Shown here: positions 4,628 through 37,571 of the stretch, one piece after another
How the letters are laid out: each line of letters opens with the position of its first letter
How positions within the stretch are numbered: the stretch's first letter is position 1
Source: Chromatiales bacterium
GTDB lineage: Bacteria; Pseudomonadota; Gammaproteobacteria; SZUA-140
Direction: 5' to 3'
Assembly (NCBI GenBank): GCA_050486285.1
Contig: JBJHCZ010000004.1
Coordinates: forward strand, 88,196-152,195
DNA: 64,000 nt
The notes under the pieces: model-generated
The model's input: the letters and a program-made list of their open reading frames with translations, nothing else
Told to the model about the DNA's origin: nothing
The model's database searches: none
Made by a program: the position numbers and the translations under genes

Positions 4628-4710
4628 GACGGACTCCTTGGGATGAATGAGACAGATTCTAAAGCAGCCATGGCCGGGGTTCAAGGAAACGCGCCTGGCC
4701 CGCGCGACGG

Positions 4711-7341: not shown

Positions 7342-8880
<1,539 letters not shown>

Positions 8881-10502: not shown

Positions 10503-10527
10503 AACATTCATCAGGGAGCAATTAACC

Positions 10528-11610: not shown

Positions 11611-11616
11611 ACCGTC

Positions 11617-12480
11617 ATGGCGACCCTCGTACTGAAGGCTTCCCATCTGCCGCTGGTGGCCCGACGTTCGGTCATCCCCGGCTTCGGGTTGACGATGGGC
11701 TTCACCGTCGCCTACCTCGGCGTGCTGGTGTTGCTTCCATTCGCGGCGCTGGCGTTCAAGGCCGCAGAGCTGAGCCTCGCCGAGTTCTGGGCGATCGCCA
11801 CCACGCCGCGGGCAGTGGCGAGCTACCAGCTGTCGTTCATGGCATCGGCCATCGCCGCCGGACTCAACATGGTCTTCGGGCTGCTCACGGCGTGGGTGCT
11901 GGTACGGTACGAGTTCCCGGGCAAGCGGTTGATCGACGCGCTGGTGGACCTGCCCTTCGCGCTGCCCACCGCGGTGGCGGGCATCGCGTTGACCGGGATC
12001 TACGCGACCACCGGCTGGGTCGGCCAGTACTTCGAGCCGTTCGGCATCCGCATCGCCTATAGCCAGATCGGCATCGTGGTGGCGCTGACCTTCATCGGCC
12101 TGCCTTTCGTGGTGCGCTCGGTGCAGCCGGTCCTCGCCGACCTCGAGCCGGAGGTGGAGGAGGCGGCGGCGACGCTCGGCGCCGGCCGGTTGAGGACCTT
12201 CACGCGCGTGGTGCTGCCCGCCGTGCTGCCCGCGCTGTTGTCCGGCGTGGCCCTGGCCTTTGCGCGCGCGGTGGGCGAGTTCGGGTCGATCATCTTCATC
12301 GCCGGCAACATCCCCTTCCAGACCGAGATCACGCCGCTGCTGATCTTCATCCAGCTCGAGCAGTACAACTTCGCGGCGGCGGCGGTCCTGGGTAGCGTCA
12401 TGCTGTTGTTCGCCTTCGTCATGCTGCTGGTCATCAACGGCCTGCAGCTGTGGGCGAGTTCGCGCGGAGGGCGGCACTGA
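11617..12480 (+). CDS. cysT: sulfate ABC transporter permease
   Basis: 287 aa; CysT/CysU-like MetI-family permease (EAAATLGAG loop motif). Confidence 0.88.
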   Translation: MATLVLKASHLPLVARRSVIPGFGLTMGFTVAYLGVLVLLPFAALAFKAAELSLAEFWAIATTPRAVASYQLSFMASAIAAGLNMVFGLLTAWVLVRYEFPGKRLIDALVDLPFALPTAVAGIALTGIYATTGWVGQYFEPFGIRIAYSQIGIVVALTFIGLPFVVRSVQPVLADLEPEVEEAAATLGAGRLRTFTRVVLPAVLPALLSGVALAFARAVGEFGSIIFIAGNIPFQTEITPLLIFIQLEQYNFAAAAVLGSVMLLFAFVMLLVINGLQLWASSRGGRH

Positions 12481-13363
12481 TGAGCGGTCTGCAGAATCGG
12501 CGGGTGGCGCTCCGCGATCCGGCCTGGATGCGCTTCACCGCCATCGGGGTGATGCTGACCTTCATCGGCCTCATGCTGGTATTGCCGTTGACCGCCGTGT
12601 TCTACGAGGCCTTCCGCCAGGGTCTGGCCGTGTACTGGGCCTCGATCACCGAGCCGGATGCGCTGTCGGCGATTCGCCTGACACTGCTGGTGGTTGCCTT
12701 CGCGGTCCCCGCGAACATCGTTTTCGGGCTCGCTGCGGCCTGGGCCATCACCAAGTTCCAGTTTCGCGGCAAGCAGGTGCTGATCTCGCTGATCGACATG
12801 CCCTTTGCGGTCTCCCCGGTCGTCGCCGGGCTGATCTACGTATTGCTGTGGGGCAGCGGCGGCTGGTTCGGTCCGTGGCTGACCGAGCATGACCTGCGGG
12901 TGATCTATGCAGTGCCGGGCATCATCCTGGTAGTGACCTTCGGGACCTTCCCGTTTGTCGCCCGCGAGCTGATTCCGCACATGCAGGCGCTGGGCAACGA
13001 CCACGAGGAGGCGGCGCTGACGCTGGGCGCCAGCGGCCTGCAGACCTTCTTCCGCGTGACCTTGCCGGCAGTGAAATGGTCACTGTTGTACGGCGTGATC
13101 CTGTGCAACGCGCGCGCAATGGGGGAGTTCGGCGCGGTGGCGGTGGTATCGGGCCGCATCCGCGGCGAGACCAACACCATGCCGCTGCACATCGAGGTGC
13201 TCTACAACGAGTATCAGCTCGGCGCCGCCTTTGCGGTCGCCTCGCTGCTCGCCGGGCTGGCGCTGGTGACACTGGTGGTCAAGAGTGTCGTCGAATGGCG
13301 GTCCGAACGTGATCTCAAACGCGCCGCGCAAAGCGGCGCCCGGCAGAGTCAGGAGAGTTTGTC

Positions 13364-13367
<4 letters not shown>
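12480..13367 (+). CDS. cysW: sulfate ABC transporter permease
   Basis: Start overlaps cysT stop (TGATG); CysW-like ([21 protein letters not shown]). Confidence 0.88.
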
Positions 13368-14491
<1,124 letters not shown>

Positions 14492-14506
14492 GGGGAGGTT
14501 GTTGTA

Positions 14507-15853
14507 TTGAATACGTCTGGCCCGCGGACCATCGGCCTCGGCGAGGCCTTCAGCGTCTGGCTGCGCATCGGCCTGCTGAGCTTCGGCGGTCCCGCCGGCC
14601 AGATCGCGCTGATGCAACGGATACTGATCGACGAGAAGCGCTGGCTCAGCGAGCGCCGTTTCCTGCATGCGCTGAACTACTGCATGCTGCTGCCCGGCCC
14701 GGAGGCGATCCAGCTCGCGATCTACATCGGCTGGATGATGCATCGCACGATCGGCGGGTTGATGGCGGGCCTGCTGTTCCTGCTGCCGGGCGTCGTCGCG
14801 CTGATGATCCTGAGCCTGGTCTATGCGCTGGCCGGCGACGTGCCGCTGGTCGAGGCGCTGTTCTTCGGCATCAAGGCGGCGGTGCTCGCGATCGTGATCG
14901 CGGCCGTGATCAAGGTCGCGCGAAAGGCGCTCGGTACACCGGTGCGTTACGGCATCGCCGCCGCGGCCTTTGTCGCGCTGTTTGCATTCGGCGTGCCGTT
15001 TCCGCTGGTGGTGTTGACGGCGGCCGTGGTCGGCTTTCTGGGCGGCTGGCAGCAGTGGCGCGGCTTTGAGCCGCCGAGTCACGGCAAGGCCGGGGACCAC
15101 ATCGACGAATCACACCTCGACACTGCTGCGCCCGGGCGGTGGTATCCGCTGCGCGTGCTCGCGGTCTGGCTGCCGCTGTGGATCCTGCCGACCGCGCTGT
15201 CCGCGTGGGCGCTCGGCCTGCACCATGTGTTCACGCAGACCGGCCTGTTCTTCAGCAAGCTTGCGCTGGTGACCTTCGGCGGGGCGTACGCGGTGTTGAG
15301 CTACATGGCGCAGCAGGCGGTCGAGCATCATGGCTGGGTCAGCGCCGGCGAGATGATGGACGGTCTCGGCCTCGCCGAGACGACGCCGGGGCCGCTGATC
15401 ATGGTCGTGCAGTTCGTCGGCTTCCTCGCCGGCTTTCGCGAGGGCGGCTTCGACCCGATCCTCGGCGCGGTGCTCTGCGGACTGCTCGCGACCTGGGCGA
15501 CCTTCGTGCCGAGCTTCCTGTTCATCTTCCTCGGCGCGCCGTATGTCGAGCAACTGCGCGGCCGACCCGCGCTCGGTGGCGCGCTCTCGGCGATCACCGC
15601 GGCGGTCGTCGGCGTGATCCTGAACCTTGCGCTGTGGTTCGGCATGCACGTCGTGTTCACCGAGGTCGGGAAGGTCGAGGCCGGCATCATCGATACGACG
15701 CTGCCGTCATTCGCGAGTATCGATGTGCTCGCGCTTGCGCTGGTGCTGTTCGCGCTGGTCTGCCAGTTCCTGCTCAGGCTCGGGCTGCTGGCGACACTGG
15801 GGCTGTGCGCGCTGGCCGGGGTGGGGCTGTGGGGGATCGGGCTGATTGCCTGA
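14507..15853 (+). CDS. chrA: chromate efflux transporter (CHR family, fused two-domain form)
   Basis: 448 aa; two homologous CHR halves (LSFGGPAGQIALM... and ...LVTFGGAYAVLSYM...), ~12 TM. Confidence 0.85.
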   Translation: MNTSGPRTIGLGEAFSVWLRIGLLSFGGPAGQIALMQRILIDEKRWLSERRFLHALNYCMLLPGPEAIQLAIYIGWMMHRTIGGLMAGLLFLLPGVVALMILSLVYALAGDVPLVEALFFGIKAAVLAIVIAAVIKVARKALGTPVRYGIAAAAFVALFAFGVPFPLVVLTAAVVGFLGGWQQWRGFEPPSHGKAGDHIDESHLDTAAPGRWYPLRVLAVWLPLWILPTALSAWALGLHHVFTQTGLFFSKLALVTFGGAYAVLSYMAQQAVEHHGWVSAGEMMDGLGLAETTPGPLIMVVQFVGFLAGFREGGFDPILGAVLCGLLATWATFVPSFLFIFLGAPYVEQLRGRPALGGALSAITAAVVGVILNLALWFGMHVVFTEVGKVEAGIIDTTLPSFASIDVLALALVLFALVCQFLLRLGLLATLGLCALAGVGLWGIGLIA

Positions 15854-16177
15854 AGATCAAGGAGGAATTCCGCGAACCCTTTCCATTGCCCGAAAGCCGA
15901 ACGCCGCCGACCGGCGAGCAAGCCGTCCTGCTCCACTGACGCCCTGAACCCACAGATTGGCTGACGATGCTGCGACCGGTAACGTGGCAGGGTTCCGTTC
16001 GGCAGCGCGGTCAGGCGGGGTGGTATTTCAGGAAGAAGTGGCTCGAGTCTGGGGTGCCGGGAGCGGAATTCAGGGCGGATTCCACGGCATCGAGTGGTTA
16101 CCGTGCCCACCGTGCCAGGCATCGGCGGTGAAGGACCGCTGGATGTGGTCAAGATGGGTGTTTATTCTTCCTTATAC
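15849..16177 (+). mobile_element. IS91-family element 3-prime end fragment (last ~10 codons of transposase-like ORF plus ~230 bp end region terminating in oriIS-like GGGTGTTTATTCTTCCTTATAC); direct repeat of 25036-25441
   Basis: ~80-90% identical by eye to 25150-25438, same orientation; C-terminal peptide ...LKIKEEFREPFPLPESRTPPTGEQAVLLH resembles the IS91/ISCR transposase C-terminus; terminal TTTATTCTTCCTTATAC resembles the IS91/ISCR oriIS end as I remember it. Confidence 0.6.
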
Positions 16178-16693
16178 TCCGAGTACCGCCTTCGGCCGCG
16201 GCAGCGTTGCGCCGAGCGCGGCCCAGGCACGGGTCCAGTCGTTGTCCTCAAGCGCGTTCATCGGATTGCCGTGACCGAGGAATAGCGCCGGCATGCCCAT
16301 CGTCACGACAATGCGGGCGCTCCTGCCGGACAGCAGCTTTTTGTCCATCATCCCGGGACCGGATTTCGCTAATGCGAATCCCGGCCGCATCGTCTGCTCG
16401 AGGAAACCCTTGAGCAGGGCGGGCATCGAGCCCAGCCACAGCGGATAGAGGATCACCAGGTGGTCAGCCCACGCGATGACCTGCTGGGCATCCCTGATTC
16501 CCGGCGGCGGGTTGCCATCAGACCAGTCATCCTGGGTGCGCAGCAGCGGGAATTCGAGCCTGGCGACGTCGATGATCCGGCATTCATGACCGCCCTGCGC
16601 AGCGCCCTCCCGGTAGGCCACCGCAAGCGCATGCCCGAAGCGATTGCCTTGCGGATCAGGATGACCCTGAATAACCGCTATGCGTTTGCCCAT
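16172..16693 (-). CDS. flavodoxin-like NAD(P)H-dependent oxidoreductase (NAD(P)H dehydrogenase (quinone) / YwrO-MdaB-KefF-like)
   Basis: 173 aa; MGKRIAVIQGHPD..., ...ADHLVILYPLWLGSMPALLKGFLEQ... typical of Flavodoxin_2 family; stop codon lies inside the IS91-like terminal sequence. Confidence 0.7.
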   Translation of the reverse strand: MGKRIAVIQGHPDPQGNRFGHALAVAYREGAAQGGHECRIIDVARLEFPLLRTQDDWSDGNPPPGIRDAQQVIAWADHLVILYPLWLGSMPALLKGFLEQTMRPGFALAKSGPGMMDKKLLSGRSARIVVTMGMPALFLGHGNPMNALEDNDWTRAWAALGATLPRPKAVLGV

Positions 16694-16725
16694 GGCGATC
16701 GTTCCCTGACATGAACACCGTTGAC

Positions 16726-18711
16726 TTACTCATTGAGACGGTAGGAGCTGTGCTCGTAGCTGTACGGCCCGAATAGCGCGTGAGCAAGGGCGGTGTCAAT
16801 TAGTGTGTTGTCCGGATGCGCAACTTCACTGTATGTCCCGTTACTGTATTTGTAATGATGCGGTGGCAGATCCTTCTGGAGGATGACAACGTCTTCACCG
16901 GACATATAAGCCTGCACGTTATTGTACTGCATGATCGCGCGGCCGTCTGATCTACTCCAGTCGTTCATTGTCAGGTCATGACCGATCATTGGATGCTCCG
17001 ATTTGATTCCCATGATCGACAACAGGGTCGGCAGCATATCAATTTGACTGGCGATGTTGCCATAGACGCGTGGACTGATACCGGCGCCGAGTATCAGACC
17101 CGGGATGCGAAAATGCTCGATCGGTACGTTACTGGATCCGTAGACACGGTCATTATGGTCTGCGATCACCAGAAAAATGGTGTTTTCGTAGTATGAAGAG
17201 TTCTTCGCCTTGTCAAAGAATCCCCCCAATGCGTGGTCCGCGTATTTGACCGCGTTATTGACAGTCTGCCTGTCAGCATCGAACAATTCTATTCTGTTAT
17301 CGGGATAGTCATAAGGTGAATGATTGGATGTCGAAAAGGCCAGGGTGAATGACGGCTGGCCATCGTCTTTCGATAAAACTTCATGCAACTTGTTGAACAG
17401 ATCCTCATCAGAAACACCCCAGGATCCCATATGGACGGGGTTGTCAAAATCGTTCTGATCAATGATTTCATCAAATCCGTTACCGACAAAAAACCGTCTC
17501 ATGTTGTCAAAATGACTTTCCCCGCCATACAGAAACCGGCTTTTATACCCTTCATTTTTCAGCAGCCGGGCCACCGTATAAAAACCACGTTGTGATTTTG
17601 GCAGCTTGACGACGCTGATGCTGGCGGTAGGTGGAAACCCGGTAATCACCGCCTCGATACCGCGCACCGAGCGTGTTCCGGTGGCATACAGGTTTTCAAA
17701 CCAGATCCCCTCATTGGCAAGCGCATCCAGTCTGGGTGTCAGGGGCAGGCCTCCCAGCCGGCCAACACGCTCAGCGCCAAGGCTTTCCTCGAGAATGATC
17801 ACCAGGTTGGGTTTACGCACACGGGAAACCGTTGGCAGTTGCGTGTGCAGCGTTGGAATATCGCCGGGCAAGAATGCGCCGGCTGGTATGTTCATGTGAT
17901 TCCTGACGGTCTCCAGCATGACATCATCGGCCATAAAGCCATAGCGAAACCCGCCATGTTTCTCTTCCTTGGTCTCGTAAATGGCGTACAACAGGGAGTA
18001 GGTGGAATTCAATGCGAGATCATTGACCATGAGGTCAGAGGTGATCGCCGCCTTACTGGGATTGGCAGGTCGATGATCGAGGGTTGATCTGGCAGCGGCA
18101 AACAACAGGACAATGACCAGGGGGGTCGCCAGCAGCGCCTGCCACCAGGTGTATCGCGCGCTGGCACTTGCAACCCTGGCCATGGCCATCCAGAAAAATA
18201 TCACGATGGCAGGCAGGACAATTACTGCCAGCAGGAGTTCAAATCTGTATGCGCCCCACAGTGTCGCGCCCACTTCCAGCGGATATTTCAGGTACTCGAC
18301 AAACAGGATGTTGGGCCTTGCATCGTATTGATGGATAAAGCTCGGAGTAGCCAGCTCCATGAAGACCATGAAACCGAAGCAGGCTACCAGCACCATCCGC
18401 AGGGCACGTTGCCAAAGTCGATGAGTCATGCGATGTAACGACATGAGTGGCGTCAGCATGGCGGGTAATATCAGGAGCTGGCCGATGAGGATCAGATCGA
18501 AGCGCAGGCCGGTCAGCAAGATCCGGGCAAGCGCTTCGGTATTCAGTACCCGGTCGAGTTGCCATAGCACCAGGCCAAGCCTCGATAAAGTCAGTAATGC
18601 CAGCGTCGCCAGAATAAATACAACGAACGGTACCATGGGGCCGGCAAGGGCGCGCAGCATGGTCCCGTTCTTTTCAGGGAAATATTTCGGTGTTTCTGTT
18701 ATCGCGTGCAT
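16726..18711 (-). CDS. LTA-synthase/phosphoglycerol-transferase family protein (N-terminal multi-TM domain plus extracytoplasmic sulfatase-fold domain; OpgB/MdoB- or LtaS-like)
   Basis: 661 aa; ~5 N-terminal TM helices then sulfatase-like domain; lower-GC codon usage than flanks. Confidence 0.75.
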   Translation of the reverse strand: MHAITETPKYFPEKNGTMLRALAGPMVPFVVFILATLALLTLSRLGLVLWQLDRVLNTEALARILLTGLRFDLILIGQLLILPAMLTPLMSLHRMTHRLWQRALRMVLVACFGFMVFMELATPSFIHQYDARPNILFVEYLKYPLEVGATLWGAYRFELLLAVIVLPAIVIFFWMAMARVASASARYTWWQALLATPLVIVLLFAAARSTLDHRPANPSKAAITSDLMVNDLALNSTYSLLYAIYETKEEKHGGFRYGFMADDVMLETVRNHMNIPAGAFLPGDIPTLHTQLPTVSRVRKPNLVIILEESLGAERVGRLGGLPLTPRLDALANEGIWFENLYATGTRSVRGIEAVITGFPPTASISVVKLPKSQRGFYTVARLLKNEGYKSRFLYGGESHFDNMRRFFVGNGFDEIIDQNDFDNPVHMGSWGVSDEDLFNKLHEVLSKDDGQPSFTLAFSTSNHSPYDYPDNRIELFDADRQTVNNAVKYADHALGGFFDKAKNSSYYENTIFLVIADHNDRVYGSSNVPIEHFRIPGLILGAGISPRVYGNIASQIDMLPTLLSIMGIKSEHPMIGHDLTMNDWSRSDGRAIMQYNNVQAYMSGEDVVILQKDLPPHHYKYSNGTYSEVAHPDNTLIDTALAHALFGPYSYEHSSYRLNE

Positions 18712-18721
18712 GTGAATCTGC

Positions 18722-19084
18722 CTACTTGAAAATGATTATTGCCCATATGACAACGACGTTTATCAGGCTGATAAAGACCGCTGCGGATCCCATATCCTTT
18801 GCGCGACCTGACAGCTCATGATGTTCAGGTCCGATCCGATCCACGATGGCTTCAACGGCCGAGTTCATCAGTTCAGTAATGATTACCAGCACCAGTGATG
18901 CGATAAGGATTGCGCGTTCAACATTGGTATCTCCCAGCCAGAGTGCAGCAGGCACCAACAGCAGGGCCAGCACCGCCTCCTGACGGAAAGCCGCCTCATT
19001 CCTGTAAGCAGAAGTCAAACCTTTCAGGGAATAACCCGCTGCGCTGATGATGCGTTTGTATCCTGTTTCCCCTTGCCTGGACAT
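18722..19084 (-). CDS. dgkA: diacylglycerol kinase
   Basis: Internal start MSRQGETGYKRIISAAGYSLKGL...; 120 aa; classic DgkA 3-TM pattern (NEAAFRQE, IITELMNSAVE). Confidence 0.85.
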   Translation of the reverse strand: MSRQGETGYKRIISAAGYSLKGLTSAYRNEAAFRQEAVLALLLVPAALWLGDTNVERAILIASLVLVIITELMNSAVEAIVDRIGPEHHELSGRAKDMGSAAVFISLINVVVIWAIIIFK

Positions 19085-19312
19085 GGCCGATGAAGGCGGC
19101 TCCTGACTGATCGATGAATAACGTGGGCGCATTCTATACAAGCGTAAAGTATGCATAGAAGACAGTTGACAGCGGAGTAAGTTCGTCAGTCATTGCACAC
19201 AGCGGAACTGAAGCCGGGACATCAGTAGCGGCGTGGCGCGTGAATACAGCCGGAATGACGCCGAACGGCCGACTCCCCCTGCTTATGTGACTGAAAAATA
19301 TGACGATGACGC

Positions 19313-19978
19313 TTATTTCTCCGGCAATGGAATCGACTCGGTCTCACTAGGCACCATCGCAAATCGCCCCGACTTCCAGTCAGTCTTCGCCTGCTCCAGG
19401 CGAACGCGCGAACTCGATACGAAGTTCCACCAGATATGGCGCGGGCCATCCATCGGTTCGCCGCCAAGCAGCATCAGGCGCGCCGCCCCGGCGGTCGCCG
19501 TCAGGCCTATCACCGCGCCGAGGCGGAACACGACGAGGCGGCCGGCCCCGAAACTGCTGCGTCCCGGCATCACATCGACGGTGCCGTCGAGTACGAACAT
19601 CGCCCGCTCCGCGTGTTCGACCGGCAACGACAGGCTCGCGCCCGCGGCGAGATCGACATCGGCATAAAACGTTTCCGAGATGGTCCCGACCGGCGAGACT
19701 GCGCCGGGCCGGATCGGCTGCACAAAGCCGAGGCTGTCGCGGTGCAGGATCTCTCCGGAGAATAGAGACGAGATAGAAGTTATCGAGCAGCCACTCTCCA
19801 GCGGGGTGATACGGTATAGTGCGGCGACAGCCGCTGTCCGGATTCTGCCGGTTTCGATCAGAACCGCTTCGTTATCTGTGAGCCGTCCCAGCAGGAGCCC
19901 GGGATACTTGCCTGTAGTGATGCGATGAGCCGTCGCGAGTCGAGCGCCGTGTTGCTTCATCTGCTCGGTGCCGAACAA
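19313..19978 (-). CDS. pirin-like cupin protein (possibly N-terminally short/atypical)
   Basis: C-terminal ...HIWWNFVSSSRVRLEQAKTDWKSGRF... matches the bacterial pirin C-terminal motif as I recall it; canonical N-terminal HPHRG metal motif not seen. Confidence 0.5.
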   Translation of the reverse strand: MFGTEQMKQHGARLATAHRITTGKYPGLLLGRLTDNEAVLIETGRIRTAAVAALYRITPLESGCSITSISSLFSGEILHRDSLGFVQPIRPGAVSPVGTISETFYADVDLAAGASLSLPVEHAERAMFVLDGTVDVMPGRSSFGAGRLVVFRLGAVIGLTATAGAARLMLLGGEPMDGPRHIWWNFVSSSRVRLEQAKTDWKSGRFAMVPSETESIPLPEK

Positions 19979-20197
19979 CTCGGTCCGCAGCGGCGACTCG
20001 CTGCCAAACGATTTATCTGTCAGGCCATTTCCGCCTCGATGTGGTGCAGCGGAAACCGCACCAGCAGCCCGTCCTCGCCATAGTTGACTGGCGCCAACAA
20101 GGCTTCGTGACAGAAAGGTGGATAATTAGTCCTGTGCTGAATGCACCCGGGGTGACGCCCATGCAAGCGACTGCCTGTAGTCGCGCATATCCCGGTA

Positions 20198-20356
20198 TCA
20201 AATCCTTCCCATGATAAGAAGGACAAGTAGCACGATCAAAATGACACCGACAATTCCGCTCGGCGCATAGCCCCAATTGTTGCTGTGATTCCAGACGGGA
20301 ATAACGCCCAGAAGAAGCAGAACCAGGACAATCAACAGGATTGTCGAAAGCGACAT
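20198..20356 (-). CDS. DUF3309 small membrane protein
   Basis: 52 aa: MSLSTILLIVLVLLLLGVIPVWNHSNNWGYAPSGIVGVILIVLLVLLIMGRI (two TM, WGY motif). Confidence 0.6.
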   Translation of the reverse strand: MSLSTILLIVLVLLLLGVIPVWNHSNNWGYAPSGIVGVILIVLLVLLIMGRI

Positions 20357-20479
20357 GACGGTATGCCCTCGAAGATAGAGAAGCTCCACAGTATCCGGTG
20401 TCGATTGCATGATCCGTGCGCTAGCGTACCGTCGGGGTAGCGTGATTCGGATAGTTTGTGACTTTATCGAGGGATCATC

Positions 20480-20704
20480 ATGGGCACATCTCGAATTGCA
20501 GCCGTTGTTCTGATACTGGTTGGCGTGCTCGCACTGGCGTATGGCGGATTCACCTACACCAGCGACACGCACGAGGCCAGGGTAGGATCGCTCAGCATGT
20601 CGGTCGATGAGCGGAAGCGCGTCAATATACCGGTATGGGCCGGCGCGGGCGCTGTCGTGGCCGGTGGCCTGCTGTTCCTGTTTTCCGGGCATCGTCGGCG
20701 ATAG
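20480..20704 (+). CDS. small two-TM membrane protein, unknown function
   Basis: 74 aa; hydrophobic N- and C-terminal segments flanking a polar loop. Confidence 0.35.
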   Translation: MGTSRIAAVVLILVGVLALAYGGFTYTSDTHEARVGSLSMSVDERKRVNIPVWAGAGAVVAGGLLFLFSGHRRR

Positions 20705-20787
20705 CGGCGAGTCAGTCCCGTGACAGCGAGCTGTGCCTGTCGCTGCTGTTTCCATTTTCACTAAACCTCAATAAATGGAGAAACGTT

Positions 20788-21189
20788 ATGCACGAATCAA
20801 CCAGAAGTCGTCTTGCGTGGCGCGTCTGTATGCCAGCAATCGCAACCTTGACCGTCATGCTGCTGAGTGCGTGCGGATCTGCACCCGTAGCGCCCACCGA
20901 ATCCCTCGCAGCTGCCCGTGACGCTATCGCCAACGCGGAACAGTCGGATGCGCGGCAGTTTTCCGGCGCCGAACTCGACGAAGCTCGCCATCAACTTGAA
21001 CAGGCGGAAGCAGCCGTCAGCGCCGAGAATATGATCGAAGCGGATCGACATGCCAAACAGTCACGTGTCGTCGCCGAACTTGCCTCGGAAAGGGCTGCTA
21101 CGGCCAAGGCTACTGAAATCAACCGGCAGATGGGCAGGGACGCCGAAGCCCTGAGAGAGGAAATGAAGCGTACAGGAGATCAGCAATGA
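20788..21189 (+). CDS. DUF4398-type lipoprotein
   Basis: GGAG RBS; lipobox LLSAC; alpha-helical acidic body (ESLAAARDAIANAEQSDARQFSGAELDEARHQLEQAEAA...) typical of DUF4398 proteins that precede OmpA-family genes. Confidence 0.6.
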   Translation: MHESTRSRLAWRVCMPAIATLTVMLLSACGSAPVAPTESLAAARDAIANAEQSDARQFSGAELDEARHQLEQAEAAVSAENMIEADRHAKQSRVVAELASERAATAKATEINRQMGRDAEALREEMKRTGDQQ

Positions 21190-22172
21190 ACCGGATAAAT
21201 TACACACAGACGCTGCGTGGCAGTGCTTTCACAGCAGTCATCATCGCTACTTTCACGCTTGGCGCATGCGCCAGTGCGCCGACCAGCCCCCAGGGTTCAG
21301 CAGAAGTCCGCAGCAAGTTGACTGCGTTGCAGAACGATCCTGAGCTGGCCCCGCGGGCAAGGGTACAAATCCGCGAGGCAGAGGCTGCGGTACGTGAGGC
21401 GGAAGAACCCATTTCAAGGAAAGTCGCAAAGAAAGACGAAGGCCTCGGCGAGCATCGCGTCTTCATGGCGGATCGCAGGGTGGAGATCGCGAGGGCCGTA
21501 GCCGTCAGACAGTTGGCCGAGGATCAGCGCAAGCGGCTCGGAGAAGAGCGTGATCAGGCGCGCCTGCAGGCGCGTACGATCGAAGCGGACAGGGCGCGCA
21601 GCGATGCCGAACGTGCGCGCGCAGAGACAGGGAGAGCGCAAAGTGAAGCAGAGGCAGCTCGCCTGGCAAGGGCGGAGTCCTCGGCTGAATCACAGCGAAT
21701 GGCGACGCAGGCCTCTGAAGAAGCCGCACGCCACGCAGCAGAATTACAGGGGCAGATCGATGCCTTGCAGGCAGAGGCGACCGACCGCGGTCTGGTAGTA
21801 ACGCTGGGAGACGTGTTGTTTGCCACCGGTAGCTCCGAGTTGCAACCAGGGCCCAACAGTAACCTGAACAAACTGGTGAGCTTTCTCAAGAAGTACCCCG
21901 ATCAACGTGTACTGATTGAAGGGCATACCGACAGCGTCGGTAGCGCCGATTTCAATATGGCACTGTCGCAGCGTCGCGCGGAGGCCGTCAGAAACTATCT
22001 GACACGAGAGGGTGTCGCATCGCAACGGCTGACCACCTCGGGGATGGGCATGGATCACCCGGTTGCAAGCAACGCCACGGCTACCGGCCGCTTGCAGAAC
22101 CGCCGTGTCGAGATCGTCATCGAGAGACCTCAGCTGAAGTCGCCTCAGGCGACCACTGGATTCCGTCAGTAG
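21186..22172 (+). CDS. OmpA-family lipoprotein with long coiled-coil region and C-terminal OmpA/peptidoglycan-binding domain
   Basis: 328 aa; lipobox LGAC; coiled-coil (QRKRLGEERDQARLQARTIEADRARSDAERARAE...); OmpA-C motifs (NSNLNKLVSFLKKYPDQRVLIEGHTDSVGS...NMALSQRRAEAV...RRVEIV); ATGA overlap with upstream gene. Confidence 0.8.
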   Translation: MNRINYTQTLRGSAFTAVIIATFTLGACASAPTSPQGSAEVRSKLTALQNDPELAPRARVQIREAEAAVREAEEPISRKVAKKDEGLGEHRVFMADRRVEIARAVAVRQLAEDQRKRLGEERDQARLQARTIEADRARSDAERARAETGRAQSEAEAARLARAESSAESQRMATQASEEAARHAAELQGQIDALQAEATDRGLVVTLGDVLFATGSSELQPGPNSNLNKLVSFLKKYPDQRVLIEGHTDSVGSADFNMALSQRRAEAVRNYLTREGVASQRLTTSGMGMDHPVASNATATGRLQNRRVEIVIERPQLKSPQATTGFRQ

Positions 22173-22347
22173 TTTCACGCTGATTGCGGAGGCGGCTGAG
22201 ACCGGGCAGTCGAATGGCGATGACAACGTGCTTGCATTATGAGATCTGACCGGAACACACGCAGAGGAAAAATCAGGGAATCATGAATAAGGCTACGTGC
22301 CTGTTATCTGTCTGTTCGATTATCTACCTCCATGGAGTGATACTTAC

Positions 22348-22941
22348 ATGAAAATATATCTGCCCGGAAATACCATGGTTGCCACGACTATTGTAGTCCT
22401 GCTCACGCTCGGTATTGCAGCCTGTGACAATTCCTCCGATGAAACCCGGTCAGAGTCACGCAGCGACAGCATGACTGCGGCTATCTCTGACGCAGCCATG
22501 ACCGCTCAGGTCAAGGCGAAACTGGCGACCGCAGGCGATTTGAAGAGTTCCGATATCAGCGTCTCAACGGCCAATGGCGTGGTTACGCTTGAAGGTACAG
22601 TGGCCAATGCAGACGCCAAAGCCCGTGCGGAGCAGGTGGCCAATTCTGTCGATGGTGTCAGGAGCATAAGGAATAACCTGCACGCCGGCTCAGGGGGCAT
22701 CAGCATGGCAGGCGCAGAGCGGGTCATGTCCGATAGCTGGATCACCACCAAGGTGAAATCCGAGTTGCTGGCCGATAGCCTGAGCAAGGGTTTCGAAGTC
22801 AATGTCGAAACCAGACAAGGCGTAGTAGCCCTGTCAGGTGAAATGAAGGATCAGGCAGCCGTCGATCATGTTACGGAGATTGCCGAGGGCGTAGAGGGCG
22901 TCAAGAATGTCGATACATCGGGATTGACAGTCAGCGACTGA
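22348..22941 (+). CDS. OsmY-like periplasmic lipoprotein with two BON domains
   Basis: Lipobox LGIAAC; two BON repeats (ISVSTANGVVTLEGTVANADAKARAEQVANSVDGVRSI / VNVETRQGVVALSGEMKDQAAVDHVTEIAEGVEGVKNV). Confidence 0.8.
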   Translation: MKIYLPGNTMVATTIVVLLTLGIAACDNSSDETRSESRSDSMTAAISDAAMTAQVKAKLATAGDLKSSDISVSTANGVVTLEGTVANADAKARAEQVANSVDGVRSIRNNLHAGSGGISMAGAERVMSDSWITTKVKSELLADSLSKGFEVNVETRQGVVALSGEMKDQAAVDHVTEIAEGVEGVKNVDTSGLTVSD

Positions 22942-23204
22942 AATCGTGCGCAGCAGTGGCAGTCGAGGTCTCTTTATGAGGCCCCGTTATTTTCTTCCCC
23001 TCATCGACGGATTAATGACAGTAACGCTGACATAGAAAAATTTAATGCAGCGGATTAAACGAGCAACCGAGCGCAACCTGAAGGATGCGGCTTCGTTCAT
23101 CAAGGAATGATCAAGGACAGGGTATGAGCTGTCGTGAATAAAATCTGGCGGCAGGGGGCAAAAACCCCTTGCCACACGCTTTATCAACTCTGATTGGAGG
23201 CATC

Positions 23205-23387
23205 ATGAATAATCAGAACCAGGTAAAGGGCCGTGCCCGCGCTGTAAAGGGCAAGGGCAAGGAAATCGCCGGCAAGCTGGTTGGTAACCGGCGTCTGGAA
23301 TTGAAAGGAAAATTGCAGAAAGCCGCCGGTAAAGCGCAAGCGGAAGCCGGTGATCTTCAGGAGGACATCGAGGAGAAGACAAGATGA
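23205..23387 (+). CDS. CsbD-family general stress protein
   Basis: GGAGG RBS; 60 aa MNNQNQVKGRARAVKGKGKEIAGKLVGNRRLELKGKLQKAAGKAQ... typical CsbD/YjbJ. Confidence 0.75.
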   Translation: MNNQNQVKGRARAVKGKGKEIAGKLVGNRRLELKGKLQKAAGKAQAEAGDLQEDIEEKTR

Positions 23388-23782
23388 ACTATGTATTGCC
23401 CGAAACCTCTGCACGCAGGTCATTGCACGAGATTATCCCCGGGCAGATCATGATGAGCATAGACGCCTTTATCGGAGACAACGTCTATAACCCCAAGGGC
23501 GAACGCCTGGGTAATATCCAGGACATCGTCCTCGACATTCAGAGCAACAAGCTGCGTTATGCCATTGTATCGTCGGGAGGCTTCCTCGGTATGGGCAGGC
23601 GGCTGCTGGCGGTGCCGTGGAATGCGCTGGATCTGGACCCGGACAACGGGAAAATTCTGCTCAATCTGGAGGCCACGCAGATCAGCAACGCACCCGGGTT
23701 TGACAGAAATCATTGGCCCAACATGAGCGACAGTGCCTGGGCAGCCAGTATCCATTCCTATTACGGGACCAGCCAGGATTGA
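23384..23782 (+). CDS. PRC-barrel domain protein
   Basis: ATGA overlap with csbD-like gene; VYNPKGERLGNIQDIVLDIQSNKLRYAIVSSGGFLGMGRRLLAVPWNAL matches PRC-barrel pattern. Confidence 0.7.
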   Translation: MNYVLPETSARRSLHEIIPGQIMMSIDAFIGDNVYNPKGERLGNIQDIVLDIQSNKLRYAIVSSGGFLGMGRRLLAVPWNALDLDPDNGKILLNLEATQISNAPGFDRNHWPNMSDSAWAASIHSYYGTSQD

Positions 23783-23852
23783 ACGGGCGTGGATGTATCC
23801 CACCCTGCCATGCGCACTCTATGGCGCAGTTTATCAAACAGGAGATCTACCA

Positions 23853-24194
23853 ATGAGTAAAGCAACAGATACCATTACGGGAAACTCGGGTCCGGGATCG
23901 CATGTTCTCGAGAAGGGCGTCGATCGCCTGGCGAAGGGCGCCCATAATCGAATTGATTCCGCATCCGATGCCGCGGGCCCGGCGATCGATCGCATGACCT
24001 CCCGCGCGCATAATGCAGTAAACAAGGCGGATGAAGTAGCGACGCAGGCGGCCGTGGCGATCGAAGCGTTTGGCGTCAAGACTGAAGAACTGGCCGCCAC
24101 CGGTGTGAATTATATGCGCAAGCATCCGCTGCTTTCACTGAGTCTGGCGGTCGCTGCCGGCTATGTACTGAGTCGTCTGCTGGCGTCCCGCTGA
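23853..24194 (+). CDS. DUF883 family membrane-anchored stress protein (ElaB/YqjD/YgaM-like)
   Basis: Internal start MSKATDTI with GGAG RBS; helical N-part, C-terminal anchor ...YMRKHPLLSLSLAVAAGYVLSRLLASR typical of YqjD/ElaB. Confidence 0.75.
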   Translation: MSKATDTITGNSGPGSHVLEKGVDRLAKGAHNRIDSASDAAGPAIDRMTSRAHNAVNKADEVATQAAVAIEAFGVKTEELAATGVNYMRKHPLLSLSLAVAAGYVLSRLLASR

Positions 24195-24208
24195 CAGACG
24201 CGCCGATT

Positions 24209-24649
24209 ATGATGATTCAGCGCGGCGACCCCGGGACAGGTTCCGGGGCAGAGGCCGGTGACGCGCCAGCGCCGCCAACAGGTCTGATCCGGGATGTGAT
24301 CGGCCTCGTGCATGAAATCAGGGAGCAGGCGCACGACCACCTGCAACTGGCGGTTCTTGAGACGCGGCTGTCGATCAACAGTCTGCTGGCCATGGCGATC
24401 ATTGCGATCGTCATTGCCATACTGCTGATCAGTGTATGGCTTGCGCTCGTGGGCGCTGCGGTCATGGCGCTGATCGCTGTCGGCCTCAGCCCTGCGGTCG
24501 CCCTGCTGGCGATGGGAGCCTGCAATCTCGCAGGCGCGTTACTGGGCTGGCTGCTGATACGGCGCCTGAGCAACTCGCTGGGTTGGCCTGCAACACTGCG
24601 TGCGCTCAGGTCGGAGTCGTCATCCAAAGGCGAGGGTCCATCGACATGA
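24209..24649 (+). CDS. YqjE-like (DUF1469, holin-superfamily-like) inner-membrane protein
   Basis: 146 aa with two central TM helices; position immediately after DUF883 gene mirrors E. coli yqjD-yqjE-yqjK. Confidence 0.55.
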   Translation: MMIQRGDPGTGSGAEAGDAPAPPTGLIRDVIGLVHEIREQAHDHLQLAVLETRLSINSLLAMAIIAIVIAILLISVWLALVGAAVMALIAVGLSPAVALLAMGACNLAGALLGWLLIRRLSNSLGWPATLRALRSESSSKGEGPST

Positions 24650-24996
24650 GCATTCCCCCGGATCCGGGAGGCCCGGGTAAGTCGGCCTCCCTCAGGAAGA
24701 GGATCGGTATCCTCGAAATCAGGATGAGTGAGCGTCGTCAGGGGATCGGCGACACCCTGTCCAGCATCAATGTGACGGTCCATACCCGAATGGTGTCGGT
24801 GGGCGCCCTGGTCGCCGCAGGCCTGTTTGGGGCCCTGCTCGAGAAACGCCACAGGATCAGGAACTGGTCCTTGCTGACGATGCTCAGTGCAGTCGATATC
24901 ACGATATGGAAGTTGTTCTCGCTGTACTCGAGCGCCGTGGCCTCTGCGCCCGATTATGGCGCCGGTAGTTACAACAAAACCGGTCCCGGAGCATGA
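24646..24996 (+). CDS. YqjK-like hypothetical protein
   Basis: Internal ATG overlapping yqjE-like stop (ATGA); ~116 aa with one TM; assignment by position only. Confidence 0.35.
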   Translation: MSIPPDPGGPGKSASLRKRIGILEIRMSERRQGIGDTLSSINVTVHTRMVSVGALVAAGLFGALLEKRHRIRNWSLLTMLSAVDITIWKLFSLYSSAVASAPDYGAGSYNKTGPGA

Positions 24997-25035
24997 CGCC
25001 CGGCAAGGCGTAGCGGCGATGGCCGCCATACACTA

Positions 25036-25441
25036 TTTTATATACTCTACTTTGCGGTGCCAGACTTGCCGGATCTGCGGCGGCACGATGAAAGTCATCG
25101 CCTGCATCGAAGACCCCGCAGTGATCCAGAAGATCCTCGATCACCTGAAGATCAAGGAGGAAACCCGCGATCCTTTTTCGTTTCCCGAAAGCCGGGAGCC
25201 GCTGGCCGGTGAGCAGGCCGTCCTGCTCGACTGACGCCCTGAACCCACAGATGGACTTACGATGCTACGACCGGAAACTTGGCAGGGTTCCGTTCGACAA
25301 TACGGTTAGACGGAGTTGTCTTTCAGGAAGAAGTGATTCAGGGCGGGCTCGACGGCATCGAATGGCCACCGTGCAATCCATTGGCTGTGAAAGACCGCTG
25401 GTCGCGGTCACAATGGGTGTTTATTCTTCTTATTACACTCG
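25036..25441 (+). mobile_element. IS91-family element 3-prime end fragment (C-terminal ~60 codons of transposase incl. CxxC...KILDHL motif, then ~200 bp end region terminating in oriIS-like GGGTGTTTATTCTTCTTATTACAC); direct repeat of 15849-16177
   Basis: Peptide ...LRCQTCRICGGTMKVIACIEDPAVIQKILDHLKIKEETRDPFSFPESREPLAGEQAVLLD resembles IS91/ISCR transposase C-termini; downstream DNA homologous to 15849-16177. Confidence 0.65.
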
Positions 25442-26467
25442 CCGCCACACAATGACCTCGCCGGCGCGCAGAGGGACCAGCACATCATCGCCGAGCGGGT
25501 ATTGCGGCGGGACCGTCCACGGCTCCCGATGCAGCGTGATGCGATCGGTATTGCGCGGCAGGCGATAGAAGTCGGCGCCGTGATGGCTGGCGAAGCCCTC
25601 GATCCGGTCGAGCGCGCCGGCTTGCTCGAAGGCCTCGGCATAAAGCTCGATCGCGGCATGCGCGCTGTAGATGCCGGCGCAGCCGCAGGCGGTCTCCTTG
25701 CGTCCGCGCGCGTGCGGCGCGCTGTCGGTGCCGAGGAAGAACTTCGGACTGCCACCGGTCGCGGCGCCAAGCAGCGCGGCGCGATCCTCTTCGCGCTTCA
25801 GCACCGGCAGACAATAATAGTGCGGGCGCACGCCGCCGGCGAGCAGCGCGTTGCGGTTGTAGAGCAGGTGATGCGCGGTGATCGTCGCGGCGACGGTCGC
25901 CGGCGCGGCGTGCACGAAGTCGACGGCGGCCCGCGTCGTGATGTGCTCGAAGACGATGCGCAGCCGCGGGAGGCGCCGAACCAGCGGTTCGAGGACCTCA
26001 TCGATGAAGCGCGCCTCGCGGTCGAAGATGTCGACATGCGCGGCGGTGACCTCGCCGTGAACCAGCAGCGGCAGGTCGACGACCTGCATCGCCTCGAGTA
26101 CCGGCATGACTTTTTCGATCGCGGTGACGCCGCTGTCGGAGTTCGTCGTTGCGCCGGCCGGATAGAGCTTCACCGCGGCGACACTGCCGTCGCCGGCCGC
26201 GCGGCGGATCTCGTCGGGCGCGGTGCGGTCGGTCAGGTACAGCGTCATCAGCGGTTCGAAGCGGACGCCCTCGGGGACATGGGCGAGGATGCGTTCACGA
26301 TAGGCCAGCGCCTGCGCGCAGGTCGTCACTGGCGGCGCCAGGTTCGGCATCACGATCGCGCGCGCGAAGCGCGCCGCGCAATGCGGGACCGTCGTCGCCA
26401 GCGCGGCGCCGTCGCGCAGGTGGATATGCCAGTCGTCAGGGCGGACGAGGGTCAGTGCGGTCTTCAT
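25433..26467 (-). CDS. pyrC: dihydroorotase (homodimeric class II type)
   Basis: Internal start [20 protein letters not shown]; colinear with E. coli PyrC ([20 protein letters not shown]); stop codon lies in the IS91-like end. Confidence 0.9.
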
Positions 26468-26500
26468 CGGATGGCCGGGCGGCGGCTCCCGCAACTGTGA

Positions 26501-27511
26501 TCAGCTGTCCGTCGGCAGTTCCGCCATCCGGCCCGTCATGCGGTCGATCGCCGCGACGCCGAACAGCCGGAAGCCGCGCAGCGCCTCGGGCGGGTGCCCG
26601 GCGACGCAGACGATCGGCTTGCCGTGGCAGTGTCCCATGATCAGCGGCCGGCCCGAGCGCATCGGCACGCCGTCGACGACCAGCTTGCCGCAGGCGCGCA
26701 GGAGATCGGAGATGAAGTCGCGGCCGCCGACCGCGGTGCCGCCGGAGATCACGATCATGTCGGAATGGCGCAGCGCCTCTTTCACCGAGGCGACGAAGCC
26801 GTCGAAGTCGTCCCTCATGATGCCGGCGATGCGCGGGATGCCGCCGGCCTGCTGTACCGCAGCGGCGAGCATCACCGAGTTGCTGTCGCGGATTGCGCCG
26901 GGCCTGAGCGTGCCGGTGTAGGGGATGACCTCGTCGCCGGAAGAATAGATCGTCACGATCGGCTGCGCCGACACGGTGACCTGGTTGACGCCGGTGCTCG
27001 CGATCGTGCCGATCTCGACCGGGCCGAGCAGGGTGCCGACCGGCACCGCGACCGCGTCCTGCATCAGGTCGCAGCCCTGTTCCTCGATGAAGAAACGCGG
27101 CGGAAACGGCCGGGTGATCGTGAAACCGCCGTCCTCGACCTTGGCCTCCCACTGGCGGACGACCGAGTAGGGTCCCTCGGGCACGAGGCTGCCGGTCGCG
27201 ACGGCGACGCCTTCGCCGCGGGCAAAGGCGGGGCAGGTCTCGTCGCCCGGCTTGACCCTGCCCTTGATCCGGAACGCGACCGGGTGGTCTTCAGAGGCGC
27301 TGCTGGTATCGTCGGTATGGACCAGGAAGCCCTCGACGATCGCGCGCGGGTACGGCGGCATGTCGGTCGGCGCGATGACGTCGGCGGCGAGCACCCGCCC
27401 GGCGGCCTGCTCCAGCGGACAGTTCTCGACTGCCAGCGAGCGCAGGGGAATCGCATCGACGAATTTCCGTTGTGCCTCGCTCAGTGGGGACGGCTCGCTC
27501 ATCGGGGACAC
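26501..27511 (-). CDS. MoeA-family molybdopterin-binding protein (MoeA_N + MoCF-biosynthesis domains; C-terminal MoeA domain apparently absent)
   Basis: 336 aa; MoCF domain (SGGTAVGGRDF...); canonical MDGYA motif replaced (RAIVEGFLV). Confidence 0.5.
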   Translation of the reverse strand: MSPMSEPSPLSEAQRKFVDAIPLRSLAVENCPLEQAAGRVLAADVIAPTDMPPYPRAIVEGFLVHTDDTSSASEDHPVAFRIKGRVKPGDETCPAFARGEGVAVATGSLVPEGPYSVVRQWEAKVEDGGFTITRPFPPRFFIEEQGCDLMQDAVAVPVGTLLGPVEIGTIASTGVNQVTVSAQPIVTIYSSGDEVIPYTGTLRPGAIRDSNSVMLAAAVQQAGGIPRIAGIMRDDFDGFVASVKEALRHSDMIVISGGTAVGGRDFISDLLRACGKLVVDGVPMRSGRPLIMGHCHGKPIVCVAGHPPEALRGFRLFGVAAIDRMTGRMAELPTDS

Positions 27512-37520: not shown

Positions 37521-37542
37521 GATGATTCTCCCGGCTGTCAGG

Positions 37543-37571
37543 TGCTTTACTATATATAAAAAAGTAAAGCA
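37543..37571. promoter_or_regulatory. palindrome TGCTTTACT-(AT-rich 11 nt)-AGTAAAGCA immediately upstream of vapB (candidate autoregulatory operator / promoter)
   Basis: Perfect 9-bp inverted repeat around TATATATAAAA read directly. Confidence 0.4.

Follow-up and report, generated by a model that had tools for sequence, protein, structure and literature searches.

A mosaic between two decayed ISCR ends carrying a captured stress gene cluster in a gammaproteobacterial chromosome

The analyzed window is a stretch of 64,000 nucleotides from contig JBJHCZ010000004.1 of a Chromatiales bacterium, and all positions below refer to this stretch. It contains a low-GC insert of 9.3 kb (16178-25436) in the chromosome, flanked by chrA and pyrC. 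Two decayed 3' ends of ISCR (insertion sequence common region, IS91-family) elements, in direct orientation and with oriIS-type termini, bound the insert, which is a mosaic. Within the mosaic, a captured copy of a conserved cluster of stress genes spans 19767-24996, and the remaining 3.6 kb consists of unrelated genes and gene remnants that were joined by deletions. The complete account favored here, a captured mosaic that is bounded by ISCR ends, is immobile now and carries a bidirectional promoter of activator type, was given a probability of about 0.7. The components and the vehicle are of known kinds, and the ISCR scars around a stress cluster are a new combination. ISCR elements have been studied almost only as vehicles of antibiotic resistance genes. 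Capture scars of the ISCR type, namely two oriIS ends and cut neighbors, around envelope-stress genes suggest that the same mechanism also shuffles general fitness genes.

Two ISCR ends and the cluster between them

The borders of the insert form direct repeats (15844-16177 and 25139-25436) that are about 75-80% identical, and each of them includes the end of a transposase gene.

15844-16177, + strand: left ISCR/IS91 remnant, the last ~30 transposase codons and the 3' non-coding end, terminus GGGTGTTTATTCTTCCTTATAC
25051-25436, + strand: right ISCR/IS91 remnant, the last ~57 transposase codons (25061-25231) and the 3' end, terminus GGGTGTTTATTCTTCTTATTAC

In tblastn, the right remnant corresponded to residues 441-497 of the IS91/ISVsa3 transposase (E=6e-15) and the left remnant to residues ~462-491. 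The C-terminal transposase remnant matched 4601 plasmids, and the annotated ones among them were labeled "IS91-like element ISVsa3 family transposase". Both borders terminate in GGGTGTTTATTCTTCC(T)TATAC / ...TTCTTATTAC, ~200-240 nt past the transposase stop codon. The annotated IS91/ISVsa3 (ISCR2-type) copies of two reference loci (L013 and L014) terminate equally far from the stop codon in the nearly identical GGCGTTTATTCTTCCTATAC, indicating that the borders are two oriIS-bearing 3' ends in direct orientation.

The 5' parts of both ISCR copies are deleted, and the terIS at the 5' boundary was lost with them. Apart from the two C-terminal remnants, no match to the HUH-Y2 transposase of ~497 aa was found in the 64-kb window, which also contained no intact integrase and no tRNA genes as integration sites. 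The sequence-only reading of this DNA had called the block mobilisable, which conflicts with the 57 and ~30 C-terminal transposase codons that are left. With both transposases deleted, the island would be unable to move at present, and we infer that it is immobile by itself. The same unit was not found at other sites, as look-ups with the exact proteins returned the same sample only. This sample comprised two contigs of one sequencing run (L001 and L005) whose DNA is 100% identical to the window; therefore, they represent the same genome. A megablast comparison of the island with plasmids matched only ~80 nt of the BON gene.

The GC content of the insert is 0.51-0.62, compared with ~0.67 in the flanks, and the GC content at third codon positions (GC3) of the insert genes is 0.56-0.79, compared with 0.84-0.93 in chrA, pyrC and other flanking genes. 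These values and the ISCR remnants support the earlier view of a compositional island with mobile-element relics at both ends. The left remnant abuts or replaces the 3' end of chrA; its tblastn match starts at 15826, within the last chrA codons. The chrA gene itself (chromate transporter, 14507-15853) occupies the "cargo" position immediately before the left remnant; its GC3 of 0.90 is host-like and it follows a sulfate ABC transporter operon (10372-14491).

A capture structure in which two sequential oriIS ends enclose the cargo has been described for ISCR elements with resistance genes (PMC12772301), and the rolling-circle model for ISCRs is itself still inferential (PMC9376610). As in CR2-sul2 and other ISCR capture units with "sandwich" structures, the cargo of the island lies upstream of a transposase 3' end with oriIS, a second oriIS-bearing remnant is located on the opposite side and neighboring genes are cut at the junctions (PMC9376610, PMC12772301). 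In contrast to those units, the cargo consists of stress and envelope genes instead of antibiotic resistance genes, the transposases are reduced to <=57 codons with ends that are only ~75-80% identical, and the island is located in the chromosome of an uncultured environmental gammaproteobacterium.

The stress module occupies the right half of the insert. A DUF3309 gene is divergent from a row of genes encoding a protein with two transmembrane segments (2TM), a DUF4398 protein, an OmpA-like protein, a BON protein, CsbD, a PRC-barrel protein, a DUF883 protein, a YqjE-like protein and a small membrane protein, in this order. In the related loci L006-L009 the order is cgs (- strand), DUF3309 (- strand), the 74-aa 2TM gene, DUF4398, OmpA, BON, CsbD, DUF883, the YqjE-like gene and the small membrane gene, and the cluster ends with two convergent Crp/Fnr-family regulator genes. 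L006 and L007 are without the DUF4398-OmpA pair and have a shorter BON gene of 75 aa. In locus L017 the arrangement is OmpA-PRC-DUF883-YqjE...BON...2TM, accompanied by two Crp genes. A metagenome scan with a DUF883 alignment detected 49 loci. The BON-DUF883-YqjE linkage recurs in dozens of metagenomic contigs with a GC content of 43-66%, and in some of these loci PRC, OmpA-like and Crp-family genes join it. The coherence that the sequence-only reading saw in the entire block is therefore upheld for the right half, whose gene order recurs in the independent loci L006-L009 and L017, and not for the unrelated left 3.6 kb. The opposite case considered in that reading, genes scattered in relatives, applies to the transferase gene of the left half, while the genes of the right half are clustered.

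Colinear DNA homology between the island and L008 begins at 19767, at the end of a remnant of cgs, and extends to the last membrane-protein gene. The two regulator genes that accompany the cluster in relatives are missing from the whole 64-kb window. The capture included ~75 cgs codons and ended with the last membrane-protein gene, thus leaving the regulator genes behind. Expression of the module in this genome would then depend on a regulator that is encoded elsewhere. The paired regulator genes of the relatives are located at 11132-11899 and 12403-13122 in L006 and at 7683-8492 and 8528-9271 in L017. The L006 pair has no N-terminal cysteine cluster of the Fnr type and shares a C-terminal SCECY motif; the only NCBIfam similarity of these regulators was a weak match to NtcA (24-30 bits).

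The promoter box of the stress module

20416-20433: conserved promoter box GTGCGCTAGCGTACCGTC, an 18-mer that includes a 14-bp near-palindrome at 20416-20429

The 18-mer lies in the spacer between the DUF3309 and 2TM genes. It is identical in L006-L009, with the neighboring intergenic DNA diverged, is shared without change by three lineages, and has its sole copy of the window here. Candidate -10 hexamers are TAGTTT (20452-20457, + strand) and TACTGT (20388-20393, minus strand), each 22 nt from the palindrome. When up to two mismatches were allowed (<=2), the fetched loci (536 kb) contained ~40 copies of the 14-mer, where 3.4 would be expected, and nearly all were on the same strand as the stress genes. 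The TAnnnT motif was found exactly 22 nt past the 14-mer in 16 of the 22 non-redundant sites, and the other offsets from 10 to 35 had 0-3 each. A position weight matrix identified 86 sites (59 with a -10) in 379 kb of stress-type loci; some of these loci had served to train the matrix, which makes the enrichment partly circular. The controls, made up of 131 kb of control loci and the 54 kb of the window outside the island (185 kb together), had no matrix sites. The zero count in the controls and the fixed -10 spacing are not circular and therefore carry the promoter argument.

Related boxes with this spacing occur in dozens of metagenomic loci. The genes downstream of the sites encode BON proteins (15), DUF883 proteins (7), 2TM proteins (3), DUF3309 proteins (3), PRC-barrel proteins (2), a Crp-family regulator (1) and others, the last including a CsbD-BON-YflT-like-DUF2383 row, a DUF326 protein and an operon with an Fe/Mn superoxide dismutase (SOD) gene. 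The site upstream of a Crp-family gene belongs to L017, and a weaker one was present in L044.

With the -10 hexamer assumed at -12 to -7, the 18-mer spans -48 to -31, its last five bases (CCGAC/CCGTC) fall at -35, and the skeleton of the 14-bp near-palindrome, GTnCG-N4-CGnAC, centers at -41.5. A palindrome centered near -41.5 is the layout of class II CRP/FNR promoters, and the 5-4-5 dimensions are those of an FNR site, from which the half-site here differs. As predicted from these positions, the island box matches the class II Crp/Fnr layout, with an inverted repeat near -41.5 and a -10 of the sigma-70 type. Since TAnnnT also occurs at 22 nt on the opposite strand in the island, L006 and L008, one site could serve both DUF3309 and the rightward genes. 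The module would run from one bidirectional promoter consisting of the palindrome GTGCGCTAGCGTAC with TAnnnT 22 nt away on each side.

The putative activator would most likely be the Crp/Fnr-family protein that is encoded beside the cluster in relatives, an assignment that we place slightly below even odds. A broader proposal is that GTGCGCTAsCGTAC-CGAC-N18-TAnnnT marks a general-stress regulon which is undescribed so far, is widespread among gammaproteobacteria and has a related form in Burkholderiaceae. The regulon would be controlled by a dedicated, self-regulated Crp/Fnr-family activator with the new half-site GTGCG. ISCR would then move ready-wired member operons to a resident regulator. 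We regard this proposal as doubtful in its entirety; if true, the regulon would include BON, DUF883-YqjE, CsbD, PRC-barrel, DUF3309, YflT-like, DUF2383 and SOD genes. A literal literature search for the box sequence returned unrelated primers and constructs only, and as far as such a search goes the box is new. It ties together common and poorly understood small proteins, i.e., DUF883/ElaB, YqjE, BON lipoproteins, CsbD, PRC-barrel, DUF3309 and DUF4398 proteins. The box may matter more than the ISCR capture, because it points to a candidate regulator and gives an experimental handle on the timing of expression.

Scans with the consensus sequences of the RpoS extended -10, AlgU/RpoE, EcfG (GGAAC-N15-18-CGTT), RpoN and RpoH found none upstream of the transcription units, and a generic sigma-70 and terminator scan remained at background level. 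The RpoS-type promoters that the units had been expected to share were hence not recovered, and the lone conserved promoter has an activator-type palindromic box instead. A "TTTATC[AG]A" motif ~20 nt before three start codons was dropped, as it was not conserved in relatives. In the low-GC loci L042, L048, L049, L051, L052, L054, L057, L058 and L061, a second conserved block, AAGGTTTTGAC or AAGGTTTTNGGC, was observed ~10-15 nt past the inferred -10 (e.g., L049 7443-7530), which would be the start of the 5' leader. This block is absent from the island and from L006-L009, and could be a leader RNA element or a second operator.

Objections and alternative origins

Several points weigh against the favored account. 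GC3 of the stress cluster is low in relatives as well, so composition alone is no proof of a foreign origin of the stress half. No clean empty site was seen, as the chrA-pyrC junction does not appear in the syntenic loci L015 and L016, where synteny ends at the 3' end of pyrC. On the side of the promoter, the training overlap of the matrix has been mentioned above, and the -41.5 geometry depends on where the -10 hexamer was inferred to lie. In this asymmetric box the CCGAC extension is always -10-proximal, and another factor or a dedicated sigma factor could therefore read it. Crp-family genes adjoin the cluster in only four lineages (L006-9, L017, L037, L044) of ~15 long loci. BON, CsbD and DUF883 have no box of their own in the island, and the 263-nt gap with a terminator-like hairpin after BON argues against one long operon. 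This BON-CsbD spacer (22942-23204; 82 nt in L008) contains two hairpins: the terminator-like one at 22967-22983, which is followed by a T-run, and GGGGGCAAAAACCCC, which directly precedes the ribosome-binding site of CsbD. The spacer gave no Rfam match, nor did any other part of 14000-27000 at E<=0.1.

The asymmetry of the box leads to the alternative that it is not a Crp/Fnr-type site. A dedicated alternative sigma factor might use it as an extended -35, or it might be the operator for a regulator that is unlinked and belongs to another family. This alternative is a serious possibility, although held with less than even confidence. A Crp-family gene within 8 kb is missing from most of the long loci that have boxes, and the related box of a Burkholderia multivorans plasmid, CACCGTACCGAC, is followed by CAnnnT instead of TAnnnT, both of which would suit such a factor. 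However, the GTnCG-N4-CGnAC skeleton has the 5-4-5 dimensions of an FNR site, the -10 is of the sigma-70 type TAnnnT, and the palindrome has equal spacing in both orientations in three lineages. Sites upstream of Crp-family genes in L017 and L044, and NtcA as the best, weak NCBIfam match of the linked regulators, also point to the Crp/Fnr family. The NtcA site GTA-N8-TAC resembles GTG-N8-TAC.

The capture itself could be disputed if the stress half were native, i.e., a locally displaced orthologue, and if ISCR copies had inserted nearby and caused deletions, with only the left-hand fragments acquired. Going by its PyrC homologues, the host belongs to the uncultured gammaproteobacteria; an alphaproteobacterial host, to which megablast of the flanks had pointed, was rejected on these grounds. 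L015 and L016 share the pyrC-moeA-pepA-E1-E2/E3-argG order with the window, with PyrC, MoeA, PepA, E1 and E2 75-98% identical. L006 and L016 come from the same assembly; thus, the cluster is native to the host's own lineage, at a different chromosomal place. A native stress half would be in agreement with this, with the low GC3 of the cluster in that relative and with the fast evolution of small stress proteins. It conflicts with the cut of cgs after ~75 codons and its fusion to a pirin fragment, and with the absence from the window of the Crp regulators that flank the cluster in relatives. The module proteins of the island are 52-84% identical to those of L006, whereas the identity of core proteins between these genomes is 75-94%; the modules of L006 and L008 are 83-95% identical for most proteins and 71-95% across all. 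This identity gap favors, without proof, a more distant donor. A native origin of the stress half is considered improbable.

The original proposal saw in all thirteen genes a single, coherent cassette for general, osmotic and envelope stress of the RpoS type, which could be mobilized as one unit and would serve as a transferable island for tolerance of desiccation or osmotic stress. It is largely refuted already and keeps a very low probability: most family assignments hold, ISCR ends flank the block and IS-flanked clusters of DUF3309, BON, CsbD and PRC genes exist on Burkholderiaceae plasmids, but two of the "genes" are chimeric remnants, the left half differs in its nearest-relative profile and is syntenic in none of the sampled loci, the transposase is absent, no RpoS-type or other sigma motif is shared and the unit was seen in one genome only. 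The single cassette was replaced by a 10-gene module, a 2-gene operon and debris.

Gene content of the two halves and known counterparts

The ORFs (open reading frames) were confirmed at the coordinates first given, and the ORF listing of the window has 14 between 16172 and 24996. Ten of them are intact stress-type genes, two form the transferase/DgkA operon and two are chimeric remnants. Family calls were accepted for Pfam scores above the curated cut-offs, and NCBIfam equivalog cut-offs are given with each protein. Eleven of the earlier family calls across the block are supported by Pfam; the DUF883 call stands through homologues only, and the YqjK call did not hold. The ATGA stop/start overlaps reported for DUF4398-OmpA (21186) and CsbD-PRC (23384) are real, and a third is located at 24646. 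The right half contains the following genes.

20198-20356, - strand: DUF3309 small membrane protein, Pfam 77 bits, divergent from the module promoter region
20480-20704, + strand: 74-aa protein with two predicted transmembrane segments, no Pfam match above cut-off, first gene past the box
20788-21189, + strand: DUF4398 lipoprotein, Pfam 37.5 bits, lipobox LLSAC, ATGA overlap with the next gene
21186-22172, + strand: coiled-coil OmpA-C-like peptidoglycan-binding lipoprotein (LptF-like), Pfam OmpA 88 bits
22348-22941, + strand: dual-BON lipoprotein (OsmY/DolP-like), Pfam BON x2, 127 bits, lipobox GIAAC
23205-23387, + strand: CsbD-like small hydrophilic protein, Pfam CsbD 51 bits, ATGA overlap with the PRC gene
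23384-23782, + strand: PRC-barrel protein, Pfam PRC 60 bits
23853-24194, + strand: divergent DUF883 (ElaB/YqjD-like) protein with a C-terminal membrane anchor, supported via homologues only
24209-24649, + strand: YqjE-like membrane protein (Phage_holin_3_6, PF07332, formerly DUF1469), Pfam 32.5 vs 28.4 bits
24646-24996, + strand: small membrane protein in the YqjK position, ATGA overlap, no Pfam match

Compared with the genes in the same positions of L006-L009, the DUF3309 protein is 77-79%, the 2TM protein 83-84% and the DUF883 protein 64-65% identical. The DUF4398 lipoprotein is 67% identical to those of L008/L009, and the OmpA-like protein 62% and the last small membrane protein 40% identical to their L008 counterparts. 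The OmpA-like protein has a visible lipobox and reached 181 bits in the NCBIfam LptF model (cut-off 400). A GTDB genome scan with this protein found a DUF4398-OmpA pair in Haliea that is 47-53% identical to the island pair, and no synteny beyond this pair. The BON protein is under the NCBIfam cut-offs for both OsmY (108 vs 174 bits) and the DolP type (87.5 vs 184); its lipobox makes the architecture closer to DolP/YraP. The PRC protein matched PDB 3htr, an "uncharacterized PRC-barrel domain protein" (E=2e-12). Its gene is absent from L006-L009 and lies directly upstream of DUF883 in L017, with 51% identity.

The DUF883 candidate had no Pfam match even at E<=10. Only 11 homologues were found in 5.8 billion proteins, and 8 of the 11 match DUF883_C (PF19029; best E=1.7e-5). 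Several were named ElaB, YqjD or DUF883 by the Joint Genome Institute (JGI), and the C-terminus HPLLSLSLAVAAGYVLSRLLASR is conserved. On the basis of these homologues, the window protein is probably a divergent member of the family. The YqjE-like gene follows DUF883 in most related loci. The YqjD-YqjE-YqjK order proposed from the sequence is retained for the first two genes, the DUF883 member via its homologues, and is lost for the third. Neither the window protein nor its close homologues match YqjK (PF13997), of which only the Haliea protein is a match, and a profile of the YqjK-position protein aligned to bona fide YqjK with an hhalign probability of 0.3%. The YqjK resemblance of the last gene is positional only.

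We infer envelope and membrane protection as the function of the module, which would act in stationary-phase or osmotic-type stress. The lipoproteins, in the periplasm or at the outer membrane, would bind peptidoglycan and phospholipid. Further protection would come from a hydrophilin in the cytoplasm and from an ElaB/YqjD-like protein that is tail-anchored in the inner membrane and has partners there.

The left half contains an operon and two remnants.

16172-16693, - strand: flavodoxin::ygiD' chimeric ORF, Flavodoxin_2 residues 1-~148, C-terminally cut
16726-18711, - strand: LtaS/OpgB-family membrane transferase, N-terminal membrane domain and Sulfatase domain, Pfam 164 bits
18722-19084, - strand: diacylglycerol kinase DgkA, Pfam DAGK_prokar 125 bits, full length
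19313-19978, - strand: cgs'::'pirin chimeric remnant ORF, the first ~63-75 cgs codons joined at ~19767-19777 to the C-terminal half of pirin

The transferase is far under the equivalog cut-offs of OpgB (77 vs 572 bits) and LtaS (72 vs 970 bits), and by these scores it is placed in the LtaS/OpgB phosphoglycerol-transferase family at the family level only. Its nearest relatives (55-57% identical) are from Microbulbifer, Thiothrix, Dasania and Woeseiaceae. They are stand-alone chromosomal genes of marine and sediment gammaproteobacteria without dgkA in the three contexts sampled, where the transferase-dgkA-flavodoxin synteny is absent as well. In the island, dgkA lies 10 nt upstream of the transferase gene and forms an operon with it. 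Transfer of a phospholipid head group frees diacylglycerol that is recycled by DgkA, as established for the membrane-derived oligosaccharide (MDO) cycle of E. coli and for mcr-3-dgkA. The transferase would likewise shift a phospholipid head group onto an envelope acceptor, and the resulting diacylglycerol would be recycled by DgkA.

The earlier flavodoxin and pirin calls are correct in so far as Flavodoxin_2 and Pirin_C match, and both ORFs turned out to be chimeric. The Flavodoxin_2 match is limited to profile positions 1-154 of 198 and falls short of the full-length fold. The last 41 residues of this ORF (residues 132-172) are the N-terminus of a YgiD dioxygenase (PRK10628, 58 bits). The fragment of this YgiD-type 4,5-DOPA dioxygenase covers profile positions 4-44 and is cut by the left oriIS end. 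The ORF is probably a remnant. In the "pirin" ORF only Pirin_C passes Pfam; the N-terminal (metal-binding) domain scored 16.7 bits over 28 residues, and the pair of cupin domains that makes up a pirin is incomplete. Its first 59 residues are 56-58% identical (tblastn) to the N-terminus of cgs in L006-L009, which encodes a GH94 cyclic beta-1,2-glucan synthase of 2,400-2,900 aa in the related loci. Another cgs segment, with 13 identical residues, is encoded at 19805-19767 in a different frame, and the cgs'::'pirin ORF owes its readthrough solely to a frameshift near 19803. The flavodoxin::ygiD' junction is in frame. Both junction scars thus left long ORFs that automatic annotation calls as normal genes, and the annotation of the Logan contig L005 does so. 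Caution is therefore advisable with dense lists of Pfam names that look "stress-like", as they may conceal pseudogene chimeras and unrelated hitch-hikers.

The BON, CsbD and YqjE families are common to the island and the RpoS-dependent E. coli genes yqjCDEK, elaB, osmY and yjbJ. As in yqjCDEK, a tail-anchored DUF883-type gene, a YqjE-type gene and a third small membrane gene follow each other with overlapping stops and starts. In contrast to E. coli, the DUF883 protein of the island has diverged beyond recognition by Pfam, the third gene does not encode a YqjK, the BON protein is a DolP-like lipoprotein under the OsmY cut-off and there is no RpoS-type -10. The E. coli genes are not clustered with DUF3309, DUF4398-OmpA and PRC genes as those of the island are.

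In P. aeruginosa, PA3040, which leads a three-gene operon of the DUF883 type, and the lipoprotein gene PA3691 belong to the envelope-stress stimulon that is induced by cell-wall stress (PMC3372973), and these homologous pairs and triplets support the stress-type character of the right half. The DUF883 triplet PA3040-3042 and the PA3691-lptF pair of the sigma22 (AlgU) stimulon would correspond to two sub-units of the island, which differs in having no GAACTT-N16/17-TCnnA promoter and an LptF score of 181 vs 400. In Pseudomonas the triplet and the pair are not contiguous.

The low-oxygen-activated (lxa) locus of B. cenocepacia encodes chromosomal stress proteins including BON-type "phospholipid-binding" proteins, and an inverted repeat found in many of its promoters was attributed to regulators of the Anr/Fnr family (PMC3721108). 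It is a precedent for a stress locus wired via Crp/Fnr-type repeats. The lxa motif is the canonical TGA-N6-TCA compared with GTGCG-N4-CGTAC in the island, the lxa content of universal stress proteins (USPs) and alpha-crystallin is different, and the regulators beside the native cluster are without an obvious N-terminal Fnr cysteine cluster.

Burkholderiaceae plasmids (B. multivorans p1 and Caballeronia pSBC2-3) carry IS-flanked clusters of DUF3309, BON, CsbD and PRC-barrel genes like the island. Their insertion sequences (IS) are IS21, IS5 and IS66, however, their co-resident genes encode YSC84, Spy/CpxP and DUF1003, and DNA similarity to the island is limited to the ~80 nt of the BON gene. 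In L066, the B. multivorans plasmid NZ_CP090706.1, DUF3309 is preceded by the related box CACCGTACCGAC. Box-like sites ending in CACCGTACCGAC or CACCGTACCGAT were observed in L066 at 5142-5272 and 7616-7633, on both strands between the AI-2E transporter gene and DUF3309 and also downstream of the BON gene. They have CAnnnT, not TAnnnT, at the fixed spacing and perhaps represent a betaproteobacterial form of this promoter type.

Two further observations concern the window outside the insert. An Fe/Mn superoxide dismutase gene (4049-4684, - strand) has a GC1 of 0.51, which is atypically low for the genome; box-preceded operons elsewhere (L065) include an SOD gene, and no box precedes the one in the window. 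A PIN-domain toxin gene and a MazE/AbrB-type antitoxin gene (36862-37592, - strand) form a VapBC-like pair with a 7-nt overlap. This pair is located between the YtkA-like and homoserine O-succinyltransferase genes and has a GC3 of 0.71-0.75, below that of its neighbors.

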